From a virus, in the IMG/VR virus record IMGVR_UViG_3300037993_001242, positions 96,001-160,000 of that record: DNA of 64,000 nt; one strand, written 5' to 3'. Under the pieces are notes generated by a model. It had not been told where the DNA came from, made no database searches, and was given only the letters and a program-made list of their open reading frames with translations. Below, piece after piece: positions 41,085-59,411 of this stretch; position 1 is the first letter of the stretch, and each line of letters begins with the position of its first letter. Both the position numbers and the translations under genes were made by a program.

Positions 41085-41362
41085 ATGGCATGAATGACGA
41101 ATTCAGTCTGCTGCCCAGCGATCTGGACATGGCGCGTCTGGCGGGAATACCAGTCGATGGCCGGGTGGAAGCTGAAAATCAGACGTGGGTCTGCCTTCGT
41201 TACCCGACCAAACCCGCCAAAGGCTGGCAGTGGTGCGAATACTCCTTGATCGTCAACTGTCCTAACGTGCCTGCCCACGGGGGCACGTATGAGTTTAAGT
41301 GCTTGAAGGGTGTTGTCGCCTATTTACAACAATTGGAAAACGTACGAAAGGCCAACCATTGA
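41081..41362 (+). CDS. Hypothetical protein
   Basis: Coupled ORF. Confidence 0.55.
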   Translation: MNGMNDEFSLLPSDLDMARLAGIPVDGRVEAENQTWVCLRYPTKPAKGWQWCEYSLIVNCPNVPAHGGTYEFKCLKGVVAYLQQLENVRKANH

Positions 41363-41733
41363 AAGCCGCACAAATCGTAAACCAACTGCTGGAAGTTGGC
41401 CCGGATGAAATCAATCCGAAACGGGAAATGCTGCGCGTTGATCCGGCGGCGGACATCAAGGAAATCGTTCACGCCCTGCAAAACGAAGGCATTCTTACGC
41501 TCGCGTACAAGAGGGCCGCCGACATCCTTAAACTTCACGTAAAACTGACCGAATGGACAACCGAAGAAAGGCTTGAAAACTGGCTACATGTGTTTTTAAC
41601 GGGACAACTGAATCTTCAAATTGACATCCACGGAATGACAACCAGAAATTTAGGCCCCGATTATAGTGGCACCGCGTATGAAGTCATGTTCCCGCTGAAA
41701 GGCCAACCCACGCCCTTTACAAAGTTGGTGTAG
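41359..41733 (+). CDS. LLE/DPD-leader protein
   Basis: TTG start overlapping the upstream TGA; MKAAQIVNQLLEVGPDEINPK. Confidence 0.75.
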   Translation: MKAAQIVNQLLEVGPDEINPKREMLRVDPAADIKEIVHALQNEGILTLAYKRAADILKLHVKLTEWTTEERLENWLHVFLTGQLNLQIDIHGMTTRNLGPDYSGTAYEVMFPLKGQPTPFTKLV

Positions 41734-41740
41734 TTAAAAC

Positions 41741-42853
41741 GTGATCGCTGAAACCATCGTCCGCGCTTTGCTGGAAGAAGTTGAAGACCAGCACCGCTTT
41801 GTGACCGTCGTCGTCCTGCGCAACCCGGACGACCCGGAAGTCCTGTTGGTGCAGCGCAAAAATCCGCCGGAAGCAGGCAAGTGGGGCGCGCCGGGCGGCC
41901 ATGCCAATGAAGGCGAAGCGCTTACGGACGCAGCCAAGCGCGAACTTAAAGAAGAAACGGGTATTGAGGCCGCCCAACTTCATTACTTTGACCGCGTATT
42001 CATCCCGGAACGGGATGCCTTCGACAACTTCTACTGGACGGTTGTAGACGATGACGCCAGTGCCCGCCGGGGTGACGATGCCAAACACGTCAAATGGACG
42101 AAAGTGGCCGAGATCGGCGAACTGGCTTTCAACTGCCACGTACAGATCAAGGACGCGGCTGACCGGGCGTTCGCCATCGGCAAAATTGCCGAATCAAAAG
42201 CCGAGGGCAAGTATGGACGCAACGGCCTGCTGATCGTTTTCGAGGGCATCGACGGCGCGGGCAAAACCACGCAGGTCAGGAAACTGACCGGCTGGCTCGC
42301 CGAACGCGGCTACAAGGTCAAGACCACCAAATGGAATTCATCGGAAATCCTCAACGGCGCGCTGTACAAAGCCAAAAAGCACAAGGAACTTTCGCCCATC
42401 CTGTTCAGCCTGCTCCACGCTGCCGACCTCACGTGGCGCTACGAGAACATCGTCCGGCCCGCCCTCGACAAAGGCAAAGTCGTAATCTGCGACCGCTACT
42501 ATTACACCAGTTACGTCCGTGACAGCCTGCGCGGCGTCAACGATGCGATCCTCGATTACATTTACGAGGACTGGCGCAAACCCGACGTGGTCTTTTACTG
42601 CAAGGTTCCCATTCGCACAGCGGTCGAGCGCTTGCTGCGCGAAAAAGGCGTGTATTACTACAGCGCCGGGCGGGACATCGGCTACAAAGGCAGCAAAGAG
42701 GAGTGTGCCATGCAATACGAGGAGGACATGGAAAAGGTGTACAAGCGCCTTTTTGCCAAAGAACCCAGTGTGTCTGAGATTAGTACCGAACGCCCGATCA
42801 GCGAAATAGCTGATGAAATCAAGGCTATTTTGAAGAAAAAGTTCGATGTTTAA
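41741..42853 (+). CDS. tmk: LLE-leader Nudix hydrolase-thymidylate kinase fusion
   Basis: Nudix box GGHANEGEALTDAAKRELKEETGI; FEGIDGAGKTTQ, ICDRYYYTS. Confidence 0.88.
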   Translation: MIAETIVRALLEEVEDQHRFVTVVVLRNPDDPEVLLVQRKNPPEAGKWGAPGGHANEGEALTDAAKRELKEETGIEAAQLHYFDRVFIPERDAFDNFYWTVVDDDASARRGDDAKHVKWTKVAEIGELAFNCHVQIKDAADRAFAIGKIAESKAEGKYGRNGLLIVFEGIDGAGKTTQVRKLTGWLAERGYKVKTTKWNSSEILNGALYKAKKHKELSPILFSLLHAADLTWRYENIVRPALDKGKVVICDRYYYTSYVRDSLRGVNDAILDYIYEDWRKPDVVFYCKVPIRTAVERLLREKGVYYYSAGRDIGYKGSKEECAMQYEEDMEKVYKRLFAKEPSVSEISTERPISEIADEIKAILKKKFDV

Positions 42854-44536: not shown

Positions 44537-45790
44537 TCAGACGTGCAGAAACGTACGGCTGCCCGGCGGCTTGACCGCGTCATGGGCAGCCGTGTTGTAT
44601 TCAAGTGCGTGACGCGGTAACTCAAATTCAAATCCGCGATTCACCGCCGCTTGATTATCAAACGACAGTTGCACCCAAGTCACAGGGCCGTTGGGTTTTA
44701 GACCAAACTGATTAAGCGCCTTATTGACCTTGATTTTGGCTCCCCGTGCTGTGGCGTAAACATGGCCGTATACACGCCATTTATTTTCGTGGCGACAGAC
44801 GCCGATAGCGCGCAACCCAACACTGTCCATAGCCCACATGAGCTTGTCGACTCTGGCCTTGGTCTCGAATGTGGTTTTAATAAATTGACGCGGATCAACG
44901 GCGTCAGGGTCTAAAGTTTCAGTCACGCGTTTGTTTGTTTCCAGCCACAACGCCATGGCTACATCCATGGCTGTACTATATGTTTTACCTTTGAAAATTT
45001 TTGTTGGAACGCCCGTAGCGTCAATAACCCGCCATTTACCAGACTTGTTCAGACCTATTTTACCAAGGCCATTATTCCAGAGTGCATGTTCATCGGTTAA
45101 GACCGCGTACCAGTCAGCATATTTAGCAAACCTGAAATCTGGCGTTGTTAGGGTGTACGCCTTGGGATCAACGGCATCTGGATCAAGTGCCTCTTTGATG
45201 CTGAATTCAGCTATCAATTGATCAAGGCGCACTCCCAGCAATGCGCGCTCAACGTATTTGGAACTTGTAAGCTCCCATCTGCCATTCTCACTTGTGTACA
45301 CTTGCACAGTAAGTTCATCGAGCGGCTCCCCCGCACCGAAATGGCTGTGGTTGGGCCAGACAATCAACTGATAATTGCCTATGTTTTTAAAGTAGAAACC
45401 CGGAGAATCTTGTCTCGATGCTTCCAGCGCAAATCCGCGTTCACCCAGCGTCTTCAGCCAGTTAAAGGTGCTGCGCGCATAATGACGAGGATCAACATCG
45501 TCAGGATCAGCTTCACGCAGCGCCATCAGCTTGTGTATACGCTGGGCGGCTGCCTCAGCAAATTGAGCGTGCCGGACGCGAATGGTGGTGATGGCGTAGC
45601 CCTGCTTACGTGCCTCCTGCCGGGCCTGTATGGACGCCTTGCCCTTGTTTTCAGCGTGGCCCGTGGCCAGCGCGTGGGTTTCGTCGGGCAGCGGCAGCAG
45701 CGACCAATACCAGATGTGGCTCCCGTTTATTGGAGCGGGCCGGTATTCAAGGGCGGCATACCTGCGTTGAAACAAGGCGTTAGCGTTCAC
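44537..45790 (-). CDS. Multi-module protein with three internal E-x-DPD junctions
   Basis: READPDDVDPRHY, KEALDPDAVDPKAY, TETLDPDAVDPRQF; GTAGTTA 4 nt upstream. Confidence 0.75.
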   Translation of the reverse strand: MNANALFQRRYAALEYRPAPINGSHIWYWSLLPLPDETHALATGHAENKGKASIQARQEARKQGYAITTIRVRHAQFAEAAAQRIHKLMALREADPDDVDPRHYARSTFNWLKTLGERGFALEASRQDSPGFYFKNIGNYQLIVWPNHSHFGAGEPLDELTVQVYTSENGRWELTSSKYVERALLGVRLDQLIAEFSIKEALDPDAVDPKAYTLTTPDFRFAKYADWYAVLTDEHALWNNGLGKIGLNKSGKWRVIDATGVPTKIFKGKTYSTAMDVAMALWLETNKRVTETLDPDAVDPRQFIKTTFETKARVDKLMWAMDSVGLRAIGVCRHENKWRVYGHVYATARGAKIKVNKALNQFGLKPNGPVTWVQLSFDNQAAVNRGFEFELPRHALEYNTAAHDAVKPPGSRTFLHV

Positions 45791-45804
45791 ACGCTAACTA
45801 CCGC

Positions 45805-46020
45805 CTACAATAAGGTGCCCGCTGATGGCAAAATACCATCAGCGGGCAGTGAAAACAGTCTCTCCAGCTTAATCGACGGACGGTAAGCAATCTTCCGTTT
45901 GTCCGCCATGAACCGCTTGATCTGGACGTGGACGTACTTCGCAAACCGAGCCGCCCAGTAGCGGATCGTTGCCTCGTACACGAACTCGGTTACGAAAATA
46001 CGTACAAACCAAACGAACAT
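45805..46020 (-). CDS. Small early protein
   Basis: TTGACG-N16-TACAGT 6 nt upstream. Confidence 0.5.
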   Translation of the reverse strand: MFVWFVRIFVTEFVYEATIRYWAARFAKYVHVQIKRFMADKRKIAYRPSIKLERLFSLPADGILPSAGTLL

Positions 46021-46062
46021 GCCTAAACTGTATACCGCGCTTTAAATTCGTCAACATAAAAA

Positions 46063-46278
46063 TTAAACGTCATTTTTCAGCCTGATGTGCTTAGTTTCGA
46101 TGTCGAGCACGAGCGCTTCGACACGTTGAGCCAATTGTTCGGGCGGGCATTTGAGTTTTTCGGCCAGATGTTGCACCAGCACACGGTTAGTGACCATGCG
46201 CTGGTATTGTTTCCTGAGCCTACGTTTCCACTTCAGCCGTCGTTTTCGGGTAGACCAGATTCTGAGGACAATTATCAT
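46063..46278 (-). CDS. Small basic protein
   Basis: Coupled to upstream Toprim gene. Confidence 0.5.
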   Translation of the reverse strand: MIIVLRIWSTRKRRLKWKRRLRKQYQRMVTNRVLVQHLAEKLKCPPEQLAQRVEALVLDIETKHIRLKNDV

Positions 46279-47168
46279 TTCTTTTTCTGATTGTCCGCAC
46301 GCAAGGACGCAACCGCCGTCCGTAGGAGTTTCTTGTCCTCTTCCTCTTTGGCTTTAACATCGTCCATTTTGTCTTCGTCCAAAACGTGACTGAACGCCTC
46401 GCGGATCACCTGTCCAAGAACTTCCGGCGGCAAGGCGTCAACTTCCCACGACTCATTGCCGTGCCGACCAACGTACGCCAAAGCCCGGCTGTCGCTCATT
46501 TTGGCCGGGTTGGGCGGCGGGTTATACTCCTCGATCTGCTCCATCGTCAGGGCCAGCTTTTGCACCATCACTTCCGACCCAAACATGTGCAACCGCTCAC
46601 GGATGTCGCGCACCATATCCTCACCGGAGGGGTCGTGATCACCGAGGTAAAACAAAATGGAAGTCTGGCCGTTATTTTCGTGGCGGATCATTCGCTGCGC
46701 CGCCTCGTACAGGGCGCTCTGACTGGAATAGCCCTTGTTGACCATCATCGTGACGTGAAACTCGTTGGCAAGGGGCAGCAGCACGCCGGAAAGGGCATCC
46801 TTCTCGACCCAAAGCTCAACATAGTGCTGCTGGCCCGCCCACCGGGGCAGCCGAAATGAGTGGAAAGCGGCGTCCAGCAATTCATCCAAATCCTCGAATT
46901 CCGGCGGGGATTTGGGCACCCGGACGCGATCCTCAATAGCGTCCCAGTCAATCAGCCCGGCCAGCCGGGCGTCACTGATCAGCTTGCCGAGGTTTTTGTA
47001 GGACTTTTCCTCGTTGGTGATCAGGTTGGCGATGACATGCTGGTAATAAAGCTGGCGCAACGTCAGCTTGAGACCTTGGGCCTGATACCGGACAATAATT
47101 TCATTGGCGACGCGAACGCGTTCGCGTTTTTCGTCGCTCCAGCGGCTTTCTACGAATGCTTGTTTCAT
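46275..47168 (-). CDS. Topoisomerase VI-A/Spo11-like Toprim domain protein (DUF2399/JetD-like)
   Basis: TLRQLYY, VELWVEKDAL, YLGDHDPSG, WEVDAL. Confidence 0.75.
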   Translation of the reverse strand: MKQAFVESRWSDEKRERVRVANEIIVRYQAQGLKLTLRQLYYQHVIANLITNEEKSYKNLGKLISDARLAGLIDWDAIEDRVRVPKSPPEFEDLDELLDAAFHSFRLPRWAGQQHYVELWVEKDALSGVLLPLANEFHVTMMVNKGYSSQSALYEAAQRMIRHENNGQTSILFYLGDHDPSGEDMVRDIRERLHMFGSEVMVQKLALTMEQIEEYNPPPNPAKMSDSRALAYVGRHGNESWEVDALPPEVLGQVIREAFSHVLDEDKMDDVKAKEEEDKKLLRTAVASLRADNQKKK

Positions 47169-47215
47169 AATATCTCTATACCAATAATGGGGACAGCGTT
47201 AACCCCTAAAGGACA

Positions 47216-47584
47216 CTATTTTCTTCGCTTTTGAAGTTTACGAACGTGTTCAACCGGCGGGCGTTTGACCAGATAGCGCTTGTTGTGCGTTCGTGCTCCG
47301 CGTTCGCTGGTGTATAAATCCCAATAGGGGCGTAGCAGGTCTTGACCGCGCTTTAGTCCTTTTGGGACTCTGCCTATGATACATTTGGAAAAGCGCCAGC
47401 TTGAACGTCCAACGCAACCAACGCCCGGTTTATGGGTATCTTCCCTGCCGGTGTGCATTTTCATTGTTTGCCAGCGGACGAACTGAAATGAACCCACGTC
47501 AGCACCCGAAAACCGCATGTAAAGAGTTTGGCCCCGCTTGATGGGAGTTATCTTGATTTTATCAGACAATTTTTGCGCGTTCAT
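47216..47584 (-). CDS. Basic hypothetical early protein
   Basis: TTGACA-N17-TACATT 6 nt upstream. Confidence 0.6.
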   Translation of the reverse strand: MNAQKLSDKIKITPIKRGQTLYMRFSGADVGSFQFVRWQTMKMHTGREDTHKPGVGCVGRSSWRFSKCIIGRVPKGLKRGQDLLRPYWDLYTSERGARTHNKRYLVKRPPVEHVRKLQKRRK

Positions 47585-47638
47585 ACCAGTAATGTATACG
47601 GGTATGACAATAATGTCAATAGAAAAATTTAATCGCCT

Positions 47639-48568
47639 CTACTTGGGTTCATGTGGCTCGTTGCCACCCGCATGACCACAAACATCGCCCCCGGTATCAT
47701 CCACCAAAACGCCCTGTTCCTGCTTGACCCGCTTGTTGCAGTGAGCGCAACGGTGAGACCATGTTGCTCCGAATTTACCGCGCTCTATATCCTGCTGAGT
47801 CAATTCGACCCATATCTGCCTTAATTGATCCCAGTCCCCTTTTTCGGCAACCCCCGCGTAAATTAAAATGGCCTGATCCAGATCATAACCGGCCTTCGTC
47901 AACTCCGCTCGCGCCAGCGCTTCAGCATCTTCCTTGGAAACAGCTTGAACCGGATAGTCAAGCGCCGGTGGGCCATCTACTTCAATATCCCTACCCTCAA
48001 CGTCTTTGGCTCCCTCGAATGATACGATCCAGTAGTGACCGGGCAGCTTTTTAAGCATAACCCGTGGGTCAACTTCGTCGGGATCGATGGCTTCCCTGAC
48101 TCGTTGCACGCGATCCCGGTGGTCTGCCCATTCCTGTTTGGCGCGCTTTTTCTCCACGCCGGTCATGTCGAACGGACTGGTCACCATGCTCCAACGCCCG
48201 CAGGCGCATTTCCACCCATCCCACGATGATACCAATCGGCAGGGCTTGTGGCCGTGCTTGAGGCTGAAGCGCTTGAAGTTGATGTCATCAGGATCGAGCG
48301 CTTCGTTACGATATTTGGGCTTTGAAACGATCCCGTATTTTCGTTCCAGTTCTTCTCGTGGTGTATGGTATATTTCTTCCTCTTCCACTTGTTGGGGCCA
48401 ATCACTGAATGGACAGGTTAAATCAGCACAGTATCCTGATTGGTCAACGTCACTACCGCATTTTTTACAAAAACCCGGTATGTGAAGTACTTGCTGTTTG
48501 AAGTCAACGTCGTCAGGATCAGCTTCCAGCAGGCGGGAAACGATGAATTGTGCTCGCGGGGTGTTCAC
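47639..48568 (-). CDS. LLE/DPD-leader multi-module protein
   Basis: RAQFIVSRLLEADPDDVDFK, NEALDPDDINFK, REAIDPDEVDPR; Cys-rich modules. Confidence 0.78.
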   Translation of the reverse strand: MNTPRAQFIVSRLLEADPDDVDFKQQVLHIPGFCKKCGSDVDQSGYCADLTCPFSDWPQQVEEEEIYHTPREELERKYGIVSKPKYRNEALDPDDINFKRFSLKHGHKPCRLVSSWDGWKCACGRWSMVTSPFDMTGVEKKRAKQEWADHRDRVQRVREAIDPDEVDPRVMLKKLPGHYWIVSFEGAKDVEGRDIEVDGPPALDYPVQAVSKEDAEALARAELTKAGYDLDQAILIYAGVAEKGDWDQLRQIWVELTQQDIERGKFGATWSHRCAHCNKRVKQEQGVLVDDTGGDVCGHAGGNEPHEPK

Positions 48569-48894
48569 GACTGCGATACCGCGCTCATGGCCGTCTGCTC
48601 CACGTAGCGCTGGGCATCGTCACGCGTGGCAAAGCCATCTTTTTGGGGAGCGCGCCGGGGCATGGCAAACCAAGGACTTTGCAGCGTCCGGGCCTTGGCC
48701 TCCGGCGTCATGGACGGCGGCAGGTTGGTTTCCATGTGCTTGCTGATCATGCCCAGCCACCGGCCATCCGACGAATGTACACCGTAAACTTCCGGCTGGT
48801 CTTCGACCGGTTGCAGCGTGCTGGATAGAGGAGCCGCACTCGTCGGTTCATCTTCCAGCAAAAAGGATACCATCTGGCGTGCTCTGGTGCTCAT
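48565..48894 (-). CDS. LLE-leader protein
   Basis: MSTRARQMVSFLLEDEP. Confidence 0.7.
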   Translation of the reverse strand: MSTRARQMVSFLLEDEPTSAAPLSSTLQPVEDQPEVYGVHSSDGRWLGMISKHMETNLPPSMTPEAKARTLQSPWFAMPRRAPQKDGFATRDDAQRYVEQTAMSAVSQS

Positions 48895-48896
48895 GT

Positions 48897-49235
48897 TCAG
48901 CCGCTTGTTTTGTCGTCTTTTTGAGGATGCCACTTAAAGCGAGTGGTCAAATCGTGCTTGAACGACGGCGTTTCCGCTTTAGGCGGTATTTTAATCTTAA
49001 TCGTCGGCCTGCTTGCTTTAGGTTCAGCCGAGATGGCTGAGGTTTGCTCGTCCGGCTCCACTGTTGGTACCTGCGCAGAATACGCCCGTTGACCCAAAAA
49101 GTCCTTGGCCGTGAATTTGAACTTTTTAAAACCGCTTTGCCGCCACGGATCACTTGCGCCACCAACAGGCACAGGTGTATTTCCAGCGTATTCCAGCAGC
49201 TTGTCTACGACTTCGGCAGCAGTTAGTTTGACCAT
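48897..49235 (-). CDS. LLE-leader protein
   Basis: MVKLTAAEVVDKLLE; GTAGTTA 5 nt upstream of 49235. Confidence 0.7.
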   Translation of the reverse strand: MVKLTAAEVVDKLLEYAGNTPVPVGGASDPWRQSGFKKFKFTAKDFLGQRAYSAQVPTVEPDEQTSAISAEPKASRPTIKIKIPPKAETPSFKHDLTTRFKWHPQKDDKTSG

Positions 49236-49251
49236 TGCCTTAACTACGACA

Positions 49252-49932
49252 TCATCTTCCACGATACCTCACCGAACCTTGGCGCACCAACGGACGACCC
49301 ATCCGATAACGCGTCAATCTTGATTTTGGCATCCGTACGATTGCCGGTGAATCTGGCTCCTTATTGATGGTGGCAAACGCCCGTTCAACCCGGCTGGCAT
49401 TCAAGCTTACAGGTAGTAGTGGTCTCGAAAACGCCCTTTCTATCCAAGCATCCATAAAAACATAAAGCTCCTTAATATCTTCAAACGAATGCGTGTGCAG
49501 AACACGAATGATGCCAATCATCTCCGTTTCAAATTCTTCCAGATCAGAGTGCTCATGTATCGAATAATGCCGGGTAAATTCACCGTCTGGCGTCACCACC
49601 AACACATGCTTGATCCCGCGCCGCCCCGACACGCGCCGAAACCATCCAAAAGCAAACCAAGTCGTCAACGTGTTGTCCAAAACGTGACCATCCGCGCCAC
49701 AATTCACAAATATCCGGCAAAAACTTGCTGGACGCTTTGACCGTTCGTGTTTGTAGCCTCTGGCCAGTGGAACATCTCGAACGTATGCCTTGAGATGATT
49801 GCTGCTCGCCGATTTATTAAGATTAAACTCCAAGCGCTTCAACCGCTCGGTTACGTTCAGATGATCCCATACGTAGAAATCGAGGGCGTCCGGGTCAAAC
49901 TTCTGGTGCTGGTGTTGAAGGGGCTTTTTCAC
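49252..49932 (-). CDS. Hypothetical protein, start uncertain (possible +1 frameshift partner of upstream gene)
   Basis: Protein-like sequence begins at FDPDALDF across the upstream stop; nearest GTG is at 49932 inside the upstream gene. Confidence 0.55.
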   Translation of the reverse strand: MKKPLQHQHQKFDPDALDFYVWDHLNVTERLKRLEFNLNKSASSNHLKAYVRDVPLARGYKHERSKRPASFCRIFVNCGADGHVLDNTLTTWFAFGWFRRVSGRRGIKHVLVVTPDGEFTRHYSIHEHSDLEEFETEMIGIIRVLHTHSFEDIKELYVFMDAWIERAFSRPLLPVSLNASRVERAFATINKEPDSPAIVRMPKSRLTRYRMGRPLVRQGSVRYRGR

Positions 49933-50419
49933 TGGGTTCTTCTTTGTACCGCGTGAACGGTTTGATGGGTTTGTCAAACCAGACCACGCTGTCGTCGTTC
50001 ATTTCCGCACCGACATAATCGGTCGGCAATATGGCCATTTGGCCTTCACTCGGTTTCCTGTACGCCGACCGCAAACCATAACCTTTAGCCGCTAAAGCGG
50101 CTTTTCCTTTGGCATACGGGCCGGTACCGGAATAATGAAGCTGCTCACCGGTGATAAATCGCTTCACATCTTTACGCTTTTTGCCGTACCGCGCAAGTTC
50201 GCGCTCAAGTTCTACCACACAACGAAGTTCGTCCCACGTAGCATCGGCTTTCCGACGCAGGGTCTTCAACTGGAGAAATTTGGCATGAATCGAATCCCAG
50301 TGTTTAAAAAGTTCAGAGTGTTCGCCGGTCGGCTCGTCGGCTCCCTGCGGCGGAGGCGGCACCGGCTGGTCAAGATCAGTTTCAGTCAAAACATCCACTA
50401 TGTTTTTCGCTTTGCTCAT
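49895..50419 (-). CDS. LLE-type leader protein
   Basis: MSKAKNIVDVLTETD; GTAATTA 4 nt upstream. Confidence 0.7.
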   Translation of the reverse strand: MSKAKNIVDVLTETDLDQPVPPPPQGADEPTGEHSELFKHWDSIHAKFLQLKTLRRKADATWDELRCVVELERELARYGKKRKDVKRFITGEQLHYSGTGPYAKGKAALAAKGYGLRSAYRKPSEGQMAILPTDYVGAEMNDDSVVWFDKPIKPFTRYKEEPSEKAPSTPAPEV

Positions 50420-50682
50420 AGTCTAATTACTTCGCCACACCGGACACAAACATCGCAGACATACTGCTTTTCCGTCACGTCATTGCCGTTTCTTAACATT
50501 CGTTCAAACGTATCCAACGCTTCCATCTCCTCGCCTATCGGAGCCGCATCTATAAGGCGCTCCAAATCCTCAGCCGTCGACGGCGGATGATGAACATGAG
50601 AATCCACGCTGGCCGTGTTGTAGCGCGGCTTAAACTTATGGCCGAAAATCAGCCCAAACAGTCCTCGACAGCGCTTATTCAT
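50416..50682 (-). CDS. Small Cys/His protein (DUF1660-like)
   Basis: CRGLFGLIFGHKF...CVRCG. Confidence 0.6.
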   Translation of the reverse strand: MNKRCRGLFGLIFGHKFKPRYNTASVDSHVHHPPSTAEDLERLIDAAPIGEEMEALDTFERMLRNGNDVTEKQYVCDVCVRCGEVIRL

Positions 50683-51751
50683 TATTCAATCCAACCAAAG
50701 TATGATCGAGCCAAATCCGTTTATGGGTCTTCCAAAATCCCTGTTTGGCCGCTTCATCAGCGTTGGCCCAGTCTATGTAGCCATCCGCCGTGCGTGGCAG
50801 CAGGGCCACCGGCACCAATTCGCTCTTTTTGCCGATCACTTGATACGTCCAGTGAGCGGCCCGGCGATGAAGCGCCGGACTGGCATGGGTTCCGGTGCCG
50901 TCGCTCTGGCGCACCATGCGGTAATTGGCTCCGATAATGATGGGTGCCCAAATTGCCGGGCGTTCCACGCCTCGTTTCACTTTGGCTGGACGATCCACTT
51001 TTTCCTTGCCAACCAGACCATCACGCCAGTTGAGTACGCACAGAAGTTTGAGCATCAACAATGACACTTTATCGGTGGCTTCCTTGTTCTTGGCCACCAC
51101 GTTTGCCGGGGCACCTGTCCAGTCGGTATAGTCAAAATCCTTCGTGATAGCGTCAGCCAAGGTCTCGTTCCAGTAACTGGACACGTAATTTTCCATACGG
51201 CCATTTTTCCACGCATACCACATCCATGACACCTTGTCCTGTGTCGCCTCGATCTCCGGCGCGCCGGGAAAGTACTTGCAGGTCATCGGCTTTTTCCATT
51301 GCTGACACGCGTATACATAGCAGGTATCGATACCCAGATAATCGTGCATGAATTTCGCTGGAAATCCAAAAACCAAGCCCGGCATGGGCCACTTCAGTTC
51401 CTCGATCCGCAGGTCTTTGGGCAGTTCCGTCGCCGCCACCGCCCGGATGAACTCGTCGGCCACGTAGTAAACCGGCACATCTTGGTTGATGACCTCGTAA
51501 CAAATCGCCTGCGCTGTAATCCGTTGGGGTATCACCGGTCTGCCGGAAGCGATGTCCTCTGCATTCTCACCGACCATCACATGCAGCCCGACGGCAACTT
51601 CCTTGCTGCTGTGATACGTGCCGGGAGCCTGTCGTTTTTTCGGCTCGTAGATGGACAACATCAAAAGCGGAATGTCGGCGTGCATATCCTGCATCACCGC
51701 GCTCAAGGTGGGCCAGCGCTGCATCATCTTAGCTTCGGCAGGATCAATCAT
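50675..51751 (-). CDS. Hypothetical protein
   Basis: 358 aa; HASPALHRRAAHW. Confidence 0.65.
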   Translation of the reverse strand: MIDPAEAKMMQRWPTLSAVMQDMHADIPLLMLSIYEPKKRQAPGTYHSSKEVAVGLHVMVGENAEDIASGRPVIPQRITAQAICYEVINQDVPVYYVADEFIRAVAATELPKDLRIEELKWPMPGLVFGFPAKFMHDYLGIDTCYVYACQQWKKPMTCKYFPGAPEIEATQDKVSWMWYAWKNGRMENYVSSYWNETLADAITKDFDYTDWTGAPANVVAKNKEATDKVSLLMLKLLCVLNWRDGLVGKEKVDRPAKVKRGVERPAIWAPIIIGANYRMVRQSDGTGTHASPALHRRAAHWTYQVIGKKSELVPVALLPRTADGYIDWANADEAAKQGFWKTHKRIWLDHTLVGLNNE

Positions 51752-51983
51752 GGCATTCTGCCTTTTTAAGGAACCACCAAACCGCCGCTGCCAGCAGGAG
51801 ATAGGCGAGTGCCAGAATCAGAAATTCCGTGTCCAGCCGGTCAATGCGGTGTTGTAGTTCGGCAATCTGGCCGCTGGCGTACGACGCGTTGGCTCTGGCC
51901 ATTTCAAGGGTTTGGTGCATCATCTGCGCGGTAGGATCGTTGGTACCGTGAGGCAGAGCAATAACTGCAAACAAAGTTTTCAT
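51744..51983 (-). CDS. Small membrane protein
   Basis: C-terminal TM helix. Confidence 0.55.
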   Translation of the reverse strand: MKTLFAVIALPHGTNDPTAQMMHQTLEMARANASYASGQIAELQHRIDRLDTEFLILALAYLLLAAAVWWFLKKAECHD

Positions 51984-53089
51984 AATTTGGTTTCGATATA
52001 AGGTTCAGGGAACGGTCGAGCCACAAATTTAAGTGACTCGAAATAGCGATAGTCGTCGGCTCCCGCAATGAAACCGTGGCCTTTCAAATTCAATACAAAT
52101 CGGGTGACATTTTCCGGGCCGTGACCATCCCAAATCTTTTCCGCGATGTCGCCCGCTTCCTGATACGCACCACAGGGCCAGAGGGTGTCAATAAAATCGG
52201 CTCCAGCCACGTAAACGTGGCCATGAATCAGGTATTTGATGCGTGGATAAGTCGCGAACAAATGCGCCTGTATCGGAGTATCTACGGAAGGTTTATGTTC
52301 ACCAAAATACTTGTAGACAGTTTTTGGCCCCGACCCCGGAGTCAAGATCACCGGCACAAATCCATCCGCACCAATGGATGCTTTGTCGATGTTGCGCCGT
52401 GAAATAAAAGCAATGTCGCCATCCCGAAAGGCGGGAAAACCGTGACTACACCGAAAGGCAGCATTCCCGACGAAACGCTCAACGATCTTGGGCACTGGCA
52501 ACAGCCCACTGAATTGCTGCGCTGCCGTGCGGATGTAATCAAAAAATCCGGTTTCTTCCGGCACTGGCGGTACGGCACCTTCAATCCGCTCGGTGCCAAT
52601 GCGCAGGACGGTCGCTAAAAACTTCAGACGATTGCCAATGGCACGGCCCATGTCCGTAAAATCCATGGACTCGTAAAACAAATTGCCCAACGGATCATAT
52701 AAGCGGGCGCGATAACGGCTATCCTGCTTGGTGAATACAACGACCAGATTGGACTTCAGGTGAAGCGCGTGCTGGATGATTTGCGCCAGATCATAATTCT
52801 TTTCGACCACGCGCTTGGAAGTCACCAACAGGCAGGTTTTGTTCTGGGCCTTGATCTCGCGCACCGTGGTTTTGGGCGCGTCGTTGGGCACGTTGGCAAT
52901 CCAGATCACCGCAATACCGAGTGTACGCGCTGCCGCACTGGCCTCTTGCAATTTCTCCAGTCCGCCGCCATTGATAAAGATACCCTCTGCACCGAGAACG
53001 TCGGCCACGCCGCGATGCAGCGCTGCCGCAAGACTGGAAGGTCTGCCGCCAGCATTGTCAAAATTGCCACCTACAAAAACGTATCTCAT
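51980..53089 (-). CDS. Class II aldolase/adducin-like protein with N-terminal extra domain
   Basis: GNAAFR, ISRRN, KPSVDTPIQ, IHGH, LKGHG. Confidence 0.7.
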   Translation of the reverse strand: MRYVFVGGNFDNAGGRPSSLAAALHRGVADVLGAEGIFINGGGLEKLQEASAAARTLGIAVIWIANVPNDAPKTTVREIKAQNKTCLLVTSKRVVEKNYDLAQIIQHALHLKSNLVVVFTKQDSRYRARLYDPLGNLFYESMDFTDMGRAIGNRLKFLATVLRIGTERIEGAVPPVPEETGFFDYIRTAAQQFSGLLPVPKIVERFVGNAAFRCSHGFPAFRDGDIAFISRRNIDKASIGADGFVPVILTPGSGPKTVYKYFGEHKPSVDTPIQAHLFATYPRIKYLIHGHVYVAGADFIDTLWPCGAYQEAGDIAEKIWDGHGPENVTRFVLNLKGHGFIAGADDYRYFESLKFVARPFPEPYIETKL

Positions 53090-53141
53090 GGTTCATTGCT
53101 GGCCTGCCAACAGAGGTTGGCAGGCCAATTCAACGCGTTGA

Positions 53142-53507
53142 TTATTGCTGCCGGTTTTTGCGCGCACGCACGGCAAGACTGGCCTTTTGCGCCCGCAACA
53201 GTACGGCATACGGAACGTGCTCGCAACCAATGTACACGTCGCCCAATTTGCCATCATAGTCACCACCGTCATTGTCGACGGAAAAGTTGACCGTATGGCC
53301 GCCGGTGACTGATCTAATGGTCTTGGGCGGCTTGGGCTGGTCGTGCATGTACCGGGCGTGTTCCACAATGCGATCCAGTTCTGCCGCTGTCACCTGCTTC
53401 TTGCCTGCTTCCTCGCCGCCTTGATAGTCACAGATGGCTCCGGTGGCGTCCACACAGAGGGCCAAGTCACTTGGTAACGCTATGGTTGGTAGTTTGGTGT
53501 CTTTCAT
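53142..53507 (-). CDS. Hypothetical protein
   Basis: Coupled ORF. Confidence 0.55.
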   Translation of the reverse strand: MKDTKLPTIALPSDLALCVDATGAICDYQGGEEAGKKQVTAAELDRIVEHARYMHDQPKPPKTIRSVTGGHTVNFSVDNDGGDYDGKLGDVYIGCEHVPYAVLLRAQKASLAVRARKNRQQ

Positions 53508-54091
53508 AGTTTTGTCTGATGTTTTGTTTTACTGTTTGTTTTGATATTCCCGCCACGTGGCCGGAAAGCGCCGTAAATTTTCTTGGGAGGCTCGGCAAAG
53601 TAGCGCAGCAGCGCCGGGCAGAACCAACCTTCCATTTTGAGTTGCTCGCAAAAGTACCAGTCGCCGGTGCCGCTTTCGTCCCCGCGCAACCACGTTAATT
53701 CGATGATCGTCCCCGGAAATGGCCGGTCGGAAAACATGCAGATGAATCCGTTTTCCGCATCAGGAATCTTGGAGGTTATCGTGTCGAGGATGGTGTCCAC
53801 CCCGGACACGAAAGCCTCCTTGTTCAATCCCGTGGCGGGGTCGTCAAAAACCCACAGTCCGTTCCACTTGTAGGGCATGATGACGCGGATTTCGTTGCGC
53901 GGTGAAACAAGGGCGCGGCAATCGCCCAAAGTCAATTCGACGCTGCTTAGTCCGTGCTGGGCATACGCGATCAGCGTATCGTCAGGATGCCGCTGATTGA
54001 AGCAGGGCGACCCTTCGTACAGGTCGTGGATGCGCACGATCTCCGCAATTTTTTGAAACGCCGAGGCAAACGTTGAGGGGGTATCGTTCAT
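53504..54091 (-). CDS. DUF6717-like protein with N-terminal extension
   Basis: IMPYKWNGLWVFDDPATGL.KEAFVSG...EGWFCPALLRYF. Confidence 0.7.
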   Translation of the reverse strand: MNDTPSTFASAFQKIAEIVRIHDLYEGSPCFNQRHPDDTLIAYAQHGLSSVELTLGDCRALVSPRNEIRVIMPYKWNGLWVFDDPATGLNKEAFVSGVDTILDTITSKIPDAENGFICMFSDRPFPGTIIELTWLRGDESGTGDWYFCEQLKMEGWFCPALLRYFAEPPKKIYGAFRPRGGNIKTNSKTKHQTKL

Positions 54092-54092
54092 A

Positions 54093-54431
54093 TCAGTTGC
54101 GGCTGGCCGTGGCTTTGCGATAAACCCAAACGGCCATGTCTTTGGGCATGACGACGACCGTGACTTCGGCGGGATGATTGAGCACAAAGACGCCAGAATG
54201 GTCGATCCCCTCTGATGTGTTGGCTTGAACGACCATGGCGCTGAACTCCGTGGATTTGCCCTCCAAGCCGCGAGAACCTTTGGGGGTGGATTTATCCGTC
54301 CAGACAATTTCACCGGTGTCAACTGCCTCGGTGAATCGGTGCAAGTACTTTACCGCGCTGGCAATCACGCCAACACCGTTGACGGCGGCAACCGCAGCAT
54401 CTCTTAACGCTTTATCGAAATTATCGTCCAT
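54093..54431 (-). CDS. Hypothetical early protein
   Basis: TTGACA-N17-TACGGT upstream. Confidence 0.55.
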   Translation of the reverse strand: MDDNFDKALRDAAVAAVNGVGVIASAVKYLHRFTEAVDTGEIVWTDKSTPKGSRGLEGKSTEFSAMVVQANTSEGIDHSGVFVLNHPAEVTVVVMPKDMAVWVYRKATASRN

Positions 54432-54482
54432 GCTCAAAGCACCGTATACAATAACCGGCACTCTGTCAACACTAAAATTTAA

Positions 54483-54767
54483 CTAAAAAAGGCGCGATTC
54501 AACCAGCGGTTCAAGCTCGGCGGCGTAAAAATATAGATTGTCTCCGGGTTCAAATCCGTCGACGTGTATCCAAACCGAATCTGGATCGTCGGTTGTTGTA
54601 ACCACAGTTGCTTTTTCGCGAGGCCAGCCGCGCTTGTTGAGCATTACCCGTTCTCCCTTCAAAAATCTCTGCCGCTGCTGCGGACGCGCCATACGCACAT
54701 AATGCTTCGGATCAACTTCGTCCGGGTCGGTTTCCAGCAACCTGTTTACAAGATCGTGCGTGTTCAT
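54483..54767 (-). CDS. LLE/DPD-leader protein with SH3/KOW-like domain
   Basis: MNTHDLVNRLLETDPDEVDPKHY; FLKGERVML...YFYAAELEP. Confidence 0.78.
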   Translation of the reverse strand: MNTHDLVNRLLETDPDEVDPKHYVRMARPQQRQRFLKGERVMLNKRGWPREKATVVTTTDDPDSVWIHVDGFEPGDNLYFYAAELEPLVESRLF

Positions 54768-55087
54768 ACATTTTTAGGCCCGATGTATTGAATACTGATG
54801 ACGTAAGACACGTCATCCTTGGGCACCAAATCCGGTCGATTGAGCGCGTCAATGGCATTGAAAAACTGTTCCACCCAAATCGTTTCATCGATTTCATCGT
54901 CAGGTTCAGTCCCAGCGGGCGGCGCAAGCGGCACGATCACAACCGCAGTATATCCTTCTTCCGGCGTGGGCAAGTCAACGGTGACGTGGTACTCGTACAG
55001 CAGGTTGATGTGCTGCAAATAGTCCTTCGGACGAAGTTCGTCCGGGCCAACTTCCAGCAACCGGTTTACAATGTTGTGCGCATTCAT
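54764..55087 (-). CDS. LLE/DPD-leader protein
   Basis: MNAHNIVNRLLEVGPDELRPKDY. Confidence 0.78.
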   Translation of the reverse strand: MNAHNIVNRLLEVGPDELRPKDYLQHINLLYEYHVTVDLPTPEEGYTAVVIVPLAPPAGTEPDDEIDETIWVEQFFNAIDALNRPDLVPKDDVSYVISIQYIGPKNV

Positions 55088-56535
55088 CCGTGTCGTCTAA
55101 TCCAACTAAGTATCAACTTTTTGGCTTCGAGTTCCGAAAGATCAAATTTTTGAGTTCCTTTGATGTTGTCTTCGCCCTCACGCCAATCCGCCACAGACAC
55201 TGTCCACAGACCGTCCTCCTGCTTTCTTGCCGTGTAAACAAAATCAGTAGTGTTACGTTCAAAAGTAGGATAACTTACGGTTTGCCCCTGTATCACCGGC
55301 AATTCTGGATCAGCCACAAATTCCTTGTCCTCGCGTCCTTCAAAACCGTGCGCTCTAAGCCACGATTCAAAAGACTGCGGCAACTGCCGGAAAAGTTCTT
55401 TGGCTGGAGGCGGCTGATCCGGGTCAATCGACTCCACAACTTCTGGGATGTGCCGCCATTCCAATTTAGCCCTGCAACGGCCACACTCCTGCAAATCGAG
55501 ATCATCTTCGTCGCCGGGCTTGATGCCGTTGAATCCAGCCTCCAGATACGAAAAATCATCCATCAACAACCCCCGGAAATGGCAGATCGGGCATTCCACC
55601 AGTGGATTGCCAGTGTCTTCTGGATTGGCAATCACAATCAGTCGACCCTGAATCTTCAAATCACGCGGGGTCATCCCTTTGGTGTAATCTTTGGGCTTTA
55701 TCTCGTCAGGATCGAGCGCTTCATTGACCGTCAATCCGAGCTTGTGGGCTAAATCAGGGCGCGCTCGTCGTATCCAAAGCGCCAGTGCTTTCTGGAAAAC
55801 AGTCATCGAAGCCGATGTCCCCCAACGATCAATATATTCCGCAATGTACCCCGTGCCTTCCATGGTTCTCAACGACTGAACATCTTCTGGATTTTCCGAA
55901 CCAAAGTTGATTAGCGCGAGTTCATCCGAATCGTTTCGTCGTCTGCAATTGCTGTATACGTTCTCAATAAATTTATCAGACTTGGTAGCAAAGTATGGCG
56001 CAGCATCCGTTGTCACAGGTGGCACTCCCTCTGGCGCGTCCTCTTCATCCACCCAGATTTCCACCATGAATCGCTCTGGAATTTTTCGGAGAAATTCTTT
56101 GGGTTTAATTTCATCAGGATCGAACGCTTCGTCCATGCCGGGTGGCTCAAGATGGATGTCGTCCGCGTCTCCATGCTCCGGCGGCGAATACTCGTTATCA
56201 ACTGCTTGGGCAAAAACTTCAACAGGCTGTCCCGCCTCTTGTTCCATTTCGTCCTGCGGCTTCCAGCCTACACCGATCCAATGAACACTGGAATACGCGT
56301 ATAATTTTGCCTGCCAGACGTAAATCCACAGCAAAGTCTTTCCTTCAGTGAAACGCGCCAATTTTTCGTATTGAGCTTCGTTGGGTTTCGACATCTGCAC
56401 AAAGCGCCAACCCAATTTTTCCAGTGCGCCCCGAATCTCCAACAGCAATCCCTTTGGCACATCAGACAGGTACTGACGTGGATTAACATCATCCACGGCA
56501 TCAAGCAAAGCTGAAACTAGGCAGCGCGGCGTCAC
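55084..56535 (-). CDS. LLE/DPD-leader four-module protein
   Basis: LVSALLDAVDDVNPRQY, DEAFDPDEIKPKEF, NEALDPDEIKPKDY, VESIDPDQPPP; ATAGTTA 4 nt upstream. Confidence 0.78.
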   Translation of the reverse strand: MTPRCLVSALLDAVDDVNPRQYLSDVPKGLLLEIRGALEKLGWRFVQMSKPNEAQYEKLARFTEGKTLLWIYVWQAKLYAYSSVHWIGVGWKPQDEMEQEAGQPVEVFAQAVDNEYSPPEHGDADDIHLEPPGMDEAFDPDEIKPKEFLRKIPERFMVEIWVDEEDAPEGVPPVTTDAAPYFATKSDKFIENVYSNCRRRNDSDELALINFGSENPEDVQSLRTMEGTGYIAEYIDRWGTSASMTVFQKALALWIRRARPDLAHKLGLTVNEALDPDEIKPKDYTKGMTPRDLKIQGRLIVIANPEDTGNPLVECPICHFRGLLMDDFSYLEAGFNGIKPGDEDDLDLQECGRCRAKLEWRHIPEVVESIDPDQPPPAKELFRQLPQSFESWLRAHGFEGREDKEFVADPELPVIQGQTVSYPTFERNTTDFVYTARKQEDGLWTVSVADWREGEDNIKGTQKFDLSELEAKKLILSWIRRHG

Positions 56536-56538
56536 GCT

Positions 56539-56784
56539 CTAACTATCGGCAACGGTGGCCACTAGCCGGTTGATTTCTTCGTCGTAAGTGGTCAGCGCTT
56601 TATAGAGGTCTTCCAGCAGAGCGTAAGGCTTTCCGTTGAACCACCAGTAACCGCCTTTGGCTTCAAATTCCATGTCGCGGTACGTGGCCGGATAGTTTTG
56701 CATGGGCTGACAGCACATCATGACATCGCTGCACCAGCGCTTGAAAACAGCATCGTCGAATTTCCATTTCACTACTGTCCACAT
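56539..56784 (-). CDS. Hypothetical protein
   Basis: ATG overlaps the NADAR stop. Confidence 0.5.
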   Translation of the reverse strand: MWTVVKWKFDDAVFKRWCSDVMMCCQPMQNYPATYRDMEFEAKGGYWWFNGKPYALLEDLYKALTTYDEEINRLVATVADS

Positions 56785-57257
56785 CACTTCAAACGGTCGG
56801 GCAGAGCCTCCTCGTACTGTGGATTGCCCTCGATGACGCGGTACATCTGCCGCACGACCATCAAAAGCTGGCCCAGCTTGTTTAGACCTTTGCCGTCGCA
56901 TACACCCCAGAACGTGTCACCCCACGTATTGCCCTCGATCAATTCCTCGTTGCCTGTGGCTAACAGCTTGGCCCGCAGATCGGCATCAAAGAATTTCTGC
57001 GTCAACAGGTCGGCCATAACCTCCAGCCTGACCTTGTTCCAATGGGGATTAAAATCTTCTCTGGGAATGATTTTGCCCAGCTTTTTAGCGATGCCCGGCG
57101 AAGACGCCAACAGGATTTTCTCACGCCACTGCCGCTTCTCGGTTTTAGCCGCCTGAAACGCATGTTCAACACTAGGGTACAAAATGCCATCCAGATAAAC
57201 GGATGCCGCGTAAAAATTAGACAAAAACCGGTAATCACCTTTGAACTCGCTGATCAT
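56784..57257 (-). CDS. ybiA: NADAR (YbiA-like) protein
   Basis: FLSNFY, SVEHAFQAAK, LLATGNEELIEG, DTFWG, GLNKLGQLLM. Confidence 0.9.
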   Translation of the reverse strand: MISEFKGDYRFLSNFYAASVYLDGILYPSVEHAFQAAKTEKRQWREKILLASSPGIAKKLGKIIPREDFNPHWNKVRLEVMADLLTQKFFDADLRAKLLATGNEELIEGNTWGDTFWGVCDGKGLNKLGQLLMVVRQMYRVIEGNPQYEEALPDRLK

Positions 57258-58040: not shown

Positions 58041-59411
58041 TTAAATAGCCGCCTTGTCACTCCAGTAGCGCGCCAGTGCAACTCGCGCACAGCGCTCCTG
58101 AAACTGCGCTCCAGTTTCGCCCCCTCCCTGCGACACTGCAATCTCAATCTCGGCTGGATAATCCCGCAGTACGCGCTTGGCCACACCCCGGCGGCAGTGT
58201 TCGTCCAGCGGGCCAAATTCCAAAATCCGGTCAATCCGGCCCGGTCGGGTGGTCATTTGACCGGTACCTGCAATTCCGAGCGCTTCGTCAATGGCGTTGA
58301 CGTGGTTGGTGGTCACCACGAGAAAGATGCCATCCACCGAATCAATGCCACCGATGGTGTTCAACAAACAATCAAAGGTCAGACCGCCGCCGTCTTCGCT
58401 GAGTTTGTTGGTGCGCTTGTCAAACGTAGCGTCGATGTCCTCGATCAAAGCAATGCACGGCACACTGGTCAGTATCTGCCGCCACGAGTTCACAAATTCG
58501 CGATTAGACATGCTGGTCAAATCGAAAATACAAACCGGCAAATCTTCAGTCTGCGCCACGGCGCGCACCAACGAGGTTTTGCCCGTGCCCGGCCTCCCGT
58601 GAAGCAGCCAGCCGCGCCGCCACGGGATTTGGCGTTCCTTGTACCATTTTTCGCTCACCTTCCAGCGGTGGGCTTCCTCCACCAGTTCCAGCACTTCCGC
58701 CGGGTAGCACAGCACATCAAAAGGCGAAACAACTTCCATGATTTCAACGCCGATCTCGTCCCGTTTCCAGCGCAGCAGGCGCACCGATTCATTCATCCGC
58801 CGGTCATTGATGCCTTTGGAACTGCACCCGGCAGCCGTGGGCATGGCAGGTTCGTCCTTGTTGCCGTAACCCCGGCGTCCACCTGACCCAAAAACCCGGT
58901 CGATGTAAAAACGCCGTTTGCTGCCGTATCCGTTGGCGTCGTTTTTATTATACCGATCCAGCGCCTCCAAAATCAGCTTATCCGGGTCAAAGGTACCCCG
59001 GATGAAGCGGATCGTGGCTTTGAAATTTTTGCTTTCGGTTTTTGGCACGCCCCCTTCCCAGCCGCCGTCGGTCTGTGCTCCAAAGCCACAAAGGATTGGC
59101 CGCCAGCCCGACCAAAATAAAATGGCGTCCTTGCCCAGCATTTCGTAGGCAATACCAATAGTGCGCGCCACCGGGCGCACAAACAGATTGTCCCCGGCAT
59201 AGTCTCGCGGCCCGATGGGAGTCCGTCGCATCGTCGCCCAACAATAACCCGCTACCGCATCCAGCACCGGAGAGCCGTCAATGCGTACCGTGACAATAAA
59301 CAGGCTGATCAAACGGGTGCCCACGCCGCGAATCCAGCCCCACGCCAAAGCCAGAATGCTGGCCAGCGTCAGGCCGCCGAAAATTGAGGTAGTGACAGGA
59401 TTAAGCGCCAT
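58041..59411 (-). CDS. BCS1-like AAA+ ATPase with N-terminal membrane anchor
   Basis: RRGWLLHGRPGTGKTS, LIEDID, TTNH, RPGRID. Confidence 0.88.
   Translation of the reverse strand: MALNPVTTSIFGGLTLASILALAWGWIRGVGTRLISLFIVTVRIDGSPVLDAVAGYCWATMRRTPIGPRDYAGDNLFVRPVARTIGIAYEMLGKDAILFWSGWRPILCGFGAQTDGGWEGGVPKTESKNFKATIRFIRGTFDPDKLILEALDRYNKNDANGYGSKRRFYIDRVFGSGGRRGYGNKDEPAMPTAAGCSSKGINDRRMNESVRLLRWKRDEIGVEIMEVVSPFDVLCYPAEVLELVEEAHRWKVSEKWYKERQIPWRRGWLLHGRPGTGKTSLVRAVAQTEDLPVCIFDLTSMSNREFVNSWRQILTSVPCIALIEDIDATFDKRTNKLSEDGGGLTFDCLLNTIGGIDSVDGIFLVVTTNHVNAIDEALGIAGTGQMTTRPGRIDRILEFGPLDEHCRRGVAKRVLRDYPAEIEIAVSQGGGETGAQFQERCARVALARYWSDKAAI

Follow-up and report, generated by a model that had tools for sequence, protein, structure and literature searches.

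Three array genes and their tag

The window analysed here is a stretch of 64,000 nucleotides, bases 96001-160000 of the 199-kb IMG/VR record IMGVR_UViG_3300037993_001242, for which genome completeness is estimated at 82%. Three open reading frames (ORFs) on its minus strand, encoding 417, 309 and 483 aa, consist of small modules separated by junctions that share one peptide motif, and the same motif belongs to a tag at the N terminus of many single-module genes of this phage. The original prediction read the three ORFs as concatenated cassettes divided by this motif, and all nine junction and leader motifs that it quoted were recovered in place by six-frame translation. The arrays, their leaders and their junctions are as follows (M, module; J, junction; h, hydrophobic residue; x, any residue).

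44537-45790 (-): 417-aa array, M1-J-M2-J-M3-J-M4, GTG start, without N-terminal leader
45476-45520 (-): junction 1 of the 417-aa ORF, L-R-E-A-DPD-D-V-DP-R-H-Y, aa 91-105; 19.7 bits against the leader hidden Markov model (HMM)
45152-45199 (-): junction 2 of the 417-aa ORF, I-K-E-A-L-DPD..., aa 198-213
44879-44926 (-): junction 3 of the 417-aa ORF, V-T-E-T-L-DPD..., aa 289-304
47639-48568 (-): 309-aa array, leader-M1 (Cys-rich)-J-M2 (Cys-rich)-J-M3
48473-48568 (-): full N-terminal leader of the 309-aa ORF (helix, L-L-E at aa 13-15, A-DPD-D-V-D-F-K); 49.5 bits
48263-48310 (-): junction 1 of the 309-aa ORF, R-N-E-A-L-DPD..., aa 87-102; Arg at P3, breaking the L/I/V rule described below
48053-48100 (-): junction 2 of the 309-aa ORF, V-R-E-A-I-DPD..., aa 157-172
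55084-56535 (-): 483-aa array, degenerate leader-M1-J-M2-J-M3 (zinc-ribbon-like)-J-M4, GTG start
56440-56535 (-): degenerate leader of the 483-aa ORF; 9.2 bits against the leader HMM
56089-56136 (-): junction 1 of the 483-aa ORF, M-D-E-A-F-DPD..., aa 134-149; follows a stretch (aa 118-140) with a predicted local distance difference test (pLDDT) score <50
55681-55728 (-): junction 2 of the 483-aa ORF, V-N-E-A-L-DPD..., aa 270-285; between two domains with pLDDT >90
55393-55440 (-): junction 3 of the 483-aa ORF, V-V-E-S-I-DPD-Q-P-P-P, aa 366-381

The back-translated pattern D-P-D-x-h-x-P-[KR] has nine exact matches in the window compared with 0.04 expected (standard deviation 0.2; 100 dinucleotide shuffles), which excludes chance as the source of the motif. 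The codons vary between the copies while the residues are kept, indicating conservation at the peptide level. Junction 1 of the 417-aa ORF resembles a complete internal leader, helix included. The leader that had been assigned to the 483-aa ORF is present but degenerate, with L-L-D for L-L-E and V-D-D-V-N-P-R-Q-Y for DPDxVDPKxY.

In the single-module genes the full tag occupies the first ~30 residues. Of its three parts, the first is a short amphipathic helix (M-x-A-x-Q-h-V-x-x-L-L-E), which is followed by an acidic turn (x-[DG]PD-x-h-x-P-K) and then by a second short helix (x-Y-h-x-x-h-P). Alignment of the nine full leaders of the window shows M1, V7, L10, E12, P15 and D16 to be invariant. 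The internal junctions are without the first helix and retain h-x-E-[AST]-(h)-DPD-x-h-x-P-K-x-Y. Searching the genome with the leader HMM identified 12 ORFs that start with the full tag (42-62 bits) and ~20 further ORFs with the helix part only; nine full-tag copies lie inside the window. The internal junctions were detected by this HMM as well. A leader profile search of a collection of 5.8 billion proteins returned 42 proteins, 38 of them at E <1e-3, all metagenomic and on contigs of up to 240 kb; the 240-kb relative carries an array of 848 aa. No occurrence of the tag motif strings was found in the literature searched. When IMG/VR was scanned for exact DNA matches to the pattern L-E-x-DPD-[DE]-h-x-P-K, a single match emerged, inside an unrelated Cys-rich ORF and probably due to chance. 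The tagged single-module genes and the helix-only genes of the window are listed below.

7637-8262 (+): two adjacent single-module genes of 98 aa and 110 aa, full leaders
10966-11451 (-): 161-aa gene, full leader followed by a phrog_1915 domain
31426-31866 (+): 146-aa single-module gene, full leader
36683-37120 (+): 145-aa single-module gene, full leader
41359-41733 (+): 124-aa single-module gene, full leader, TTG start
48565-50419 (-): three ORFs with the N-terminal helix only, starts near 48894, 49235 and 50419; weak matches of 13.1, 3.0 and 8.8 bits
54483-54767 (-): 94-aa single-module gene, full leader, 61.4 bits; start overlaps the preceding stop
54764-55087 (-): 107-aa single-module gene, full leader, 61.8 bits; start overlaps the stop of the 483-aa ORF

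Since the 107-aa and 94-aa genes are both tagged and their starts overlap stops, the 483-aa locus reads as one run of tagged modules, either fused or separate. In the 161-aa gene the phrog_1915 profile covers aa 31-159 only; its alignment solely after the leader indicates that the leader is an addition to an older domain. The phrog_1915 family is without assigned function, has the motif G-H-D-F-W-L-x-R-N-G-H-G and is also a module of two distant arrays (P0041 and P0097; proteins of relatives carry P numbers and their loci L numbers).

Helix-like N termini were also observed elsewhere. A Nudix-dTMP kinase fusion at 41741-42853 (+), which has a TAGTTA box, begins with a weak helix-like stretch (1.6 bits) and was not counted as tagged. 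In a tRNA-rich region before the window (genome 58500-66500, L013), small ORFs between the tRNA genes carry the leader helix, in some of them as the variant L-L-E-Y-G-R-I, and two ORFs with starts at genome 59867 and 61685 have the full tag. Two ORFs of 187 aa and 243 aa beside the protease gene have L-G-E at residues 10-12 and I-Q-E at residues 12-14; neither matches the leader HMM, and no weight was given to them.

Structure prediction of the 483-aa ORF with AlphaFold2 (AF2; 43-sequence alignment) gave separate confident domains and low-confidence junctions. The pLDDT exceeds 90 at aa ~150-268 and 290-360 and drops below 50-60 around the three junctions. The predicted template modelling score of 0.41 indicates that the domains of this model have no fixed arrangement relative to each other. 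P-K-x-Y-h is modelled as a short helix at each module start. For the 417-aa ORF the model is of low quality (mean pLDDT 52, 7 sequences) but gives the same picture for M2 and M4. In the AF2 models the modules do not fold together as one domain. The expectation that a different domain follows each junction was borne out: the segments are 70-150 aa long and have no sequence relation to one another, and the AF2 models split at the junctions. A Foldseek comparison of the 483-aa model with the PDB gave no match at E 0.001 or better, and searches of Pfam and PHROGs gave no family match for the three arrays. Of eight tagged single genes, seven were likewise without a match, the one hit being phrog_1915.

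M3 of the 483-aa ORF (55435-55722 (-), ~aa 272-367) is a small zinc-ribbon-like domain that is widespread and has no Pfam family. Its motif is C-P-x-C ... F-S-x-L-x-A-G-F-N-G-I ... Q-E-C-G-x-C, and it has at least 50 representatives, mostly stand-alone phage proteins of 59-130 aa. It is also found at the C terminus of two Nudix-kinase enzymes (P0051 and P0056). To judge from their sequences, the small, mostly acidic and partly zinc-ribbon-like modules fit host-takeover or anti-defence binders.

Exchange of modules at the tag

The description of the ORFs as concatenated cassettes is strongly supported by the relatives, in which the modules occur elsewhere as stand-alone proteins with the full N-terminal tag or as members of other arrays. 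Stand-alone tagged genes were found there for modules of the 483-aa and 309-aa ORFs. M1 of the 483-aa ORF forms single genes with their own N-terminal leader in P0050 and P0091, as does M3 in P0049, P0052, P0064 and P0069; P0048 is a full-length homologue of the ORF. M3 of the 309-aa ORF alone with a full leader corresponds to P0107, and M2 of this ORF is located behind a different module in another array (P0106). Many zinc-ribbon proteins of the M3 type of the 483-aa ORF, 59-86 aa long and from other phages, are without a leader, which again indicates that the leader is an add-on.

Modules of the 417-aa ORF are likewise found in other combinations. In a syntenic relative (L002) its place is occupied by a protein of 682 aa (P0043), in which the first and last modules are M1 and M4 as in the 417-aa ORF and the middle contains zinc-ribbon modules, a copy of M2 and M1 of the 309-aa ORF of the window. 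The latter module is positioned behind a junction in P0043 rather than behind an N-terminal leader. P0046 consists of M1 of the 417-aa ORF alone and ends at the junction, P0045 combines this M1 with a different second module, and M2 and M4 are present as tandem tagged copies in P0047 and P0011.

The module of the 145-aa gene at 36683-37120 is fused behind other modules in P0001, P0002, P0003 and P0021. In P0002 and P0021 the whole leader is kept internally before the homologue of the 145-aa gene, so that P0002 reads as another module, a full internal leader and then the homologue. In P0001 and P0003 the leader at this place is reduced to the junction form. Between near-identical phages, entire modules are present in one and absent from the other, with the tag as the exact point of insertion or removal. 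The breakpoints of module gain, loss, fusion and fission fall exactly at the tag or junction motif. Thus, the three ORFs are almost certainly arrays in which a portable tag links independent modules that can be swapped.

Distant arrays carry variants of the joint, with five joints in P0097 (664 aa). A giant array of 1865 aa on a Logan contig (P0062, L006:10001-15598) has ~10 modules, a leader-like helix at its start and the variant joint h-x-E-S-x-E-D-F-D-x-K-E-L-x-P. It contains the M3 domain and, as read by eye, an H-x-H-x7-S-x2-D word as in JAB/MPN metalloproteases.

Candidate cutting sites and competing readings

The phage is T4-like and encodes a Peptidase_S77 protease and a gp23-type major capsid protein, the gene of the latter lying directly downstream of the protease-scaffold ORF.

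genome 25726-27441 (-), outside the window: protease-scaffold ORF, 571 aa, S77 domain fused to a long scaffold-like C-terminal part
genome 26878-27333 (-): prohead protease domain (gp21-type, Peptidase_S77, PF03420), 60.9 bits, above the cut-off

In T4, the gp21 protease cleaves behind L/I-x-E, a Glu-Ala bond being the first such site observed, and internal proteins with no other relation to one another share the capsid-targeting sequence, an N-terminal propeptide of 10 residues that ends in a site of this kind (PMC9026906, PMC3012670, PMC7411985). The original prediction had a head protease cut the arrays at E-A, E-T and E-S. The grammar of the sites agrees with this and an S77 protease is encoded; the cutting itself is a prediction. 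Among 32 non-redundant internal junctions, P3 is L, I, V or M in 24 (background 0.25, p = 3e-9, an optimistic value because homologous junctions are statistically dependent and the set of 32 includes a few false junctions from within the M3 domain). Only three of the 32 have A or G at P3, P1' is A, S, T or G in 30, and P2 and P4 are at background. L-L-E (or L-V-E) is present at residues 10-15 of the 309-aa ORF and of 11 single-module genes, and all seven [LIV]xE[AST] sites of the three arrays are located at a leader or junction.

The protease-scaffold ORF contains 15 [LIV]xE[AST] sites, and its density of 2.63 per 100 aa is the highest of 150 ORFs (mean 0.30, runner-up 1.17), nine times the mean. 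The capsid protein has three copies, all within its first 50 residues. Such placement is what a T4-like protease that shreds the scaffold and trims the capsid propeptide would predict. Together with the junction grammar it makes a good, though circumstantial, case for cutting.

The best overall explanation, tentatively held and just short of evenly balanced, is that tagged proteins and arrays are loaded into the prohead, cut after Glu by the S77 protease and ejected with the DNA. The N-terminal helix would act like the T4 capsid-targeting sequence in bringing them into the prohead core, and h-x-E would be the cutting site for the T4-type prohead protease. Cutting after Glu would convert the arrays into single modules, each of which would retain the DPD-x-V-DP-K-x-Y stub as its new N terminus, and the pieces would exit together with the DNA when the next cell is infected. 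The tag-coding DNA, which is similar between copies, probably doubles as a recombination joint for module shuffling.

A number of observations weigh against this explanation. An N-terminal leader is absent from the 417-aa ORF, and that of the 483-aa ORF reads L-L-D where Glu is expected; in T4, Asp at this position blocks processing (PMC9026906). The P3 rule is broken at several junctions (R-N-E, T-V-E, R-I-E), and the module bodies are not depleted in [LIV]xE[AST] (4 observed vs. 6 expected; 22 vs. 20 in relatives). About 18 conserved residues, the best-conserved part of the tag, lie C-terminal of the proposed cut and are not accounted for by the specificity of the protease. Of 14 tagged proteins, 12 have an acidic pI (4.2-5.8) and only the 417-aa array (pI 9.25) and the 110-aa gene product (pI 8.0) are basic, whereas the T4-type internal proteins are described as basic (PMC9026906). 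More than 30 genes carry at least the tag helix, many for capsid cargo. All relatives are metagenomic or uncultured; megablast and tblastn gave no match of this phage to cultured phages. Finally, the arrays are located outside the head module, in a minus-strand block shared with genes for a topoisomerase subunit, an AAA ATPase, a NADAR-like protein and uncharacterised ORFs, and in the relative L002 the array directly follows the topoisomerase gene. Annotated neighbouring genes are as follows.

578-2920 (-): baseplate wedge (phrog_219)
18719-19837 (+): protein kinase (phrog_3043)
46275-47168 (-): topoisomerase subunit (phrog_6247)
56784-57257 (-): NADAR-like protein (phrog_1017)
58041-59411 (-): AAA ATPase

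The capsid-cargo part of the original prediction is thus its weakest step, given the mostly acidic proteins, the replication-type neighbours and the leaderless 417-aa ORF.

Several of these observations would suit uncut multidomain proteins, in which the tag, through its helix and acidic turn, would be a docking peptide for one partner shared by all, be it a hub of the host or a protein of the phage, and would work equally well at the N terminus or between domains. The arrays would then be fused early host-takeover "polyvalent" proteins made in the cell. The acidity of the tagged proteins and the position of the genes among replication-type genes agree with docking. So does the conservation, which continues for 18 residues after the Glu up to a conserved Pro and resembles a binding motif more than a protease site; in addition, the copies inside the arrays are conserved although the N-terminal helix is missing from them. 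Phages are known to encode polyvalent proteins, some of which are delivered uncut (PMC5512222). However, docking leaves unexplained both the L/I/V at P3 and small P1' around the invariant Glu and the enrichment of the scaffold in the same [LIV]xE[AST] word. No candidate partner was identified, and Pfam shows no hallmark domain of polyvalent proteins in the three ORFs. Docking is the main rival reading, a possibility on the unlikely side.

Cutting alone would not prove packaging, since T4-type prohead proteases reportedly also cut cytoplasmic host proteins: according to a 2026 preprint, they cleave exposed loops of host CD-NTases late in infection (PMC12991175). The arrays may therefore be cut at the junction Glu by the prohead or another protease in the cytoplasm, late and unpackaged, with the modules released or inactivated on a timer. 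The site grammar would be the same as in the packaging explanation, and the acidic proteins and non-structural gene context fit a cytoplasmic life. However, the N-terminal helix ending in L-L-E at residues 10-12 of the single-module genes would have no role. This reading is improbable. With cytoplasmic cutting included, cleavage of the tag at h-x-E by the head protease is the best-supported mechanism and about as probable as its opposite; that the cut pieces are capsid cargo is held with less confidence, somewhat below an even balance.

The coincidence of the module-exchange breakpoints with the motif and the similarity of the tag-coding DNA between copies could also be explained by a motif functionless in the protein, either a recombination linker acting through micro-homology or a relic of serial duplication of an ancestral N terminus. 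However, the differences between copies are synonymous with the residues kept, the motif persists where the modules are only 40-60% identical and as variants in distant arrays, and the invariant alignment columns argue for selection at the peptide level, so this origin is very unlikely. Asp-Pro bonds break easily by chemical means, and some self-processing proteins make use of them. Self-processing of the arrays through the two nearly invariant D-P dipeptides of the motif is barely credible, because known Asp-Pro modules need a surrounding folded domain whereas the motif is a predicted exposed linker, G-P-D variants are without the first D-P, and the second Pro is replaced by F, A or L in several copies. 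A eukaryote-type 2A "stop-go" peptide was dropped as a candidate, as the motif has no N-P-G-P.

Returning to packaging with cutting, its furthest extension is a T4-like soil phage clade in which the new two-part portable tag provides plug-and-play protein delivery, which is doubtful at present. The helix ending in L-L-E would address a protein to the prohead and then be cut off, and the DPD-x-V-DP-K-x-Y stub would remain as an N-terminal handle, e.g. for tail exit or for finding the target in the next host. Dozens of small acidic effectors, single or as protease-cut arrays, would be delivered in this manner and reshuffled at the tag.

If the tag is an address and cut site, it marks a large set of proteins that possibly enter the cell before phage gene expression. 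The tagged proteins, none with a function-assigned family, would then be prime candidates for anti-defence or takeover, and the capsid-targeting principle of T4 would be extended by protease-cut cargo arrays and by a tag part that survives the cut. If it is instead a docking peptide, it points to a hub targeted by dozens of phage proteins. The arrays illustrate clearly how proteins evolve by modules around a defined joint, and a portable tag of this kind could serve to load foreign proteins into capsids.

Mapping of late genes by T4-style promoters failed, as the T4 late promoter TATAAATA occurs once in 199 kb compared with ~1.8 expected per strand. Inspection of the gene starts revealed a different hexamer, TAGTTA (also TATTTA), positioned 3-6 nt before start codons in 29 of 52 genomic TAGTTA copies, compared with 6-9% for most control hexamers.

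45795-45800 (-): TAGTTA box of the 417-aa ORF, 4 nt upstream of its GTG start codon
56540-56545 (-): TAGTTA box of the 483-aa ORF, 4 nt upstream of its GTG start codon
before 41741 (+), 26685 (+), 11451 (-), 3910 (-) and 3242 (-): examples of further TAGTTA (or TATTTA) boxes in the window

The hexamer precedes the first gene of the head operon, the head-tail adaptor, the tail assembly chaperone and the baseplate-wedge operon, and also the Nudix-dTMP kinase, lipoprotein genes and many leader-bearing genes. The box is conserved in relatives; the array in L002 is without it. TAGTTA does not resemble a Shine-Dalgarno sequence and may be a phage-specific promoter for nearly leaderless mRNAs. No evident Shine-Dalgarno was observed in 18 upstream regions inspected, including those of the capsid and protease genes, a hint that translation starts in a different way in the host or the phage.

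Comparison with known systems

Two known systems come closest: the capsid-targeting tag of T4, together with gp21, and the polyvalent proteins described by Iyer et al. (PMC5512222). As in IPI, IPII, IPIII and Alt of T4, one short N-terminal peptide is found on otherwise unrelated, fast-evolving small proteins. In both phages the peptide has a hydrophobic helix face and ends in L/I-x-E, the prohead-protease motif (L-x-E at residues 10-12 here, 8-10 in T4), with the 417-aa and 483-aa ORFs as exceptions, and a protease of this type is encoded here too. However, the resemblance is one of layout only, as the tag has no sequence similarity to the T4 tag or internal proteins. It is three times longer, with its conserved part mostly after the supposed cut, and recurs as a joint inside long ORFs, whereas the T4 internal proteins are single-module. 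The proteins here are acidic rather than basic, the tagged genes number dozens, and packaging and cutting are predictions here.

Polyvalent proteins (Iyer, Burroughs, Anand, de Souza and Aravind 2017; PMC5512222) likewise combine unrelated domains in one polypeptide with extensive shuffling, and it has been proposed that they are delivered along with the DNA and processed into units (PMC5512222). They are recognised by 2-15 unrelated shuffled domains, and each of the three ORFs has three to four modules that occur in other combinations in relatives. The distant tag-jointed array P0097 has a precomputed hit to InPase, a domain described in PMC5512222. The differences are that the modules here are tiny and unannotated, with the hallmark domains (MPTase, LPD families, ArdC, InPase) not found in the three ORFs by Pfam and PHROGs, and that the arrays have no linkage to portal, MuF or packaging genes. 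In addition, the joints are a conserved portable tag that also heads single genes, an arrangement not found described in PMC5512222.

In the giant phages phiKZ and SPN3US, a diverged homologue of gp21 (gp175/gp245) processes the ejection and inner-body proteins, also cutting behind the Glu of a three-residue motif; many head-internal proteins are cut in these phages, and N-terminal propeptides have been proposed to target the prohead (PMC9026906, PMC7411985, PMC10052503). However, the motif there is A/S/G-x-E compared with L/I/V at P3 here, and the proteins are large rather than swappable modules jointed by a tag; the phage described here is T4-like and outside that group. MARTX toxins provide a functional analogy, with interchangeable effector modules in one polypeptide that are cut at linkers and shuffled between strains, but they are secreted bacterial toxins without homology to the arrays, cut after Leu by an in-chain cysteine protease. 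Compared with both closest systems, the new element is the long two-part tag, used as N-terminal leader and as inter-module joint.

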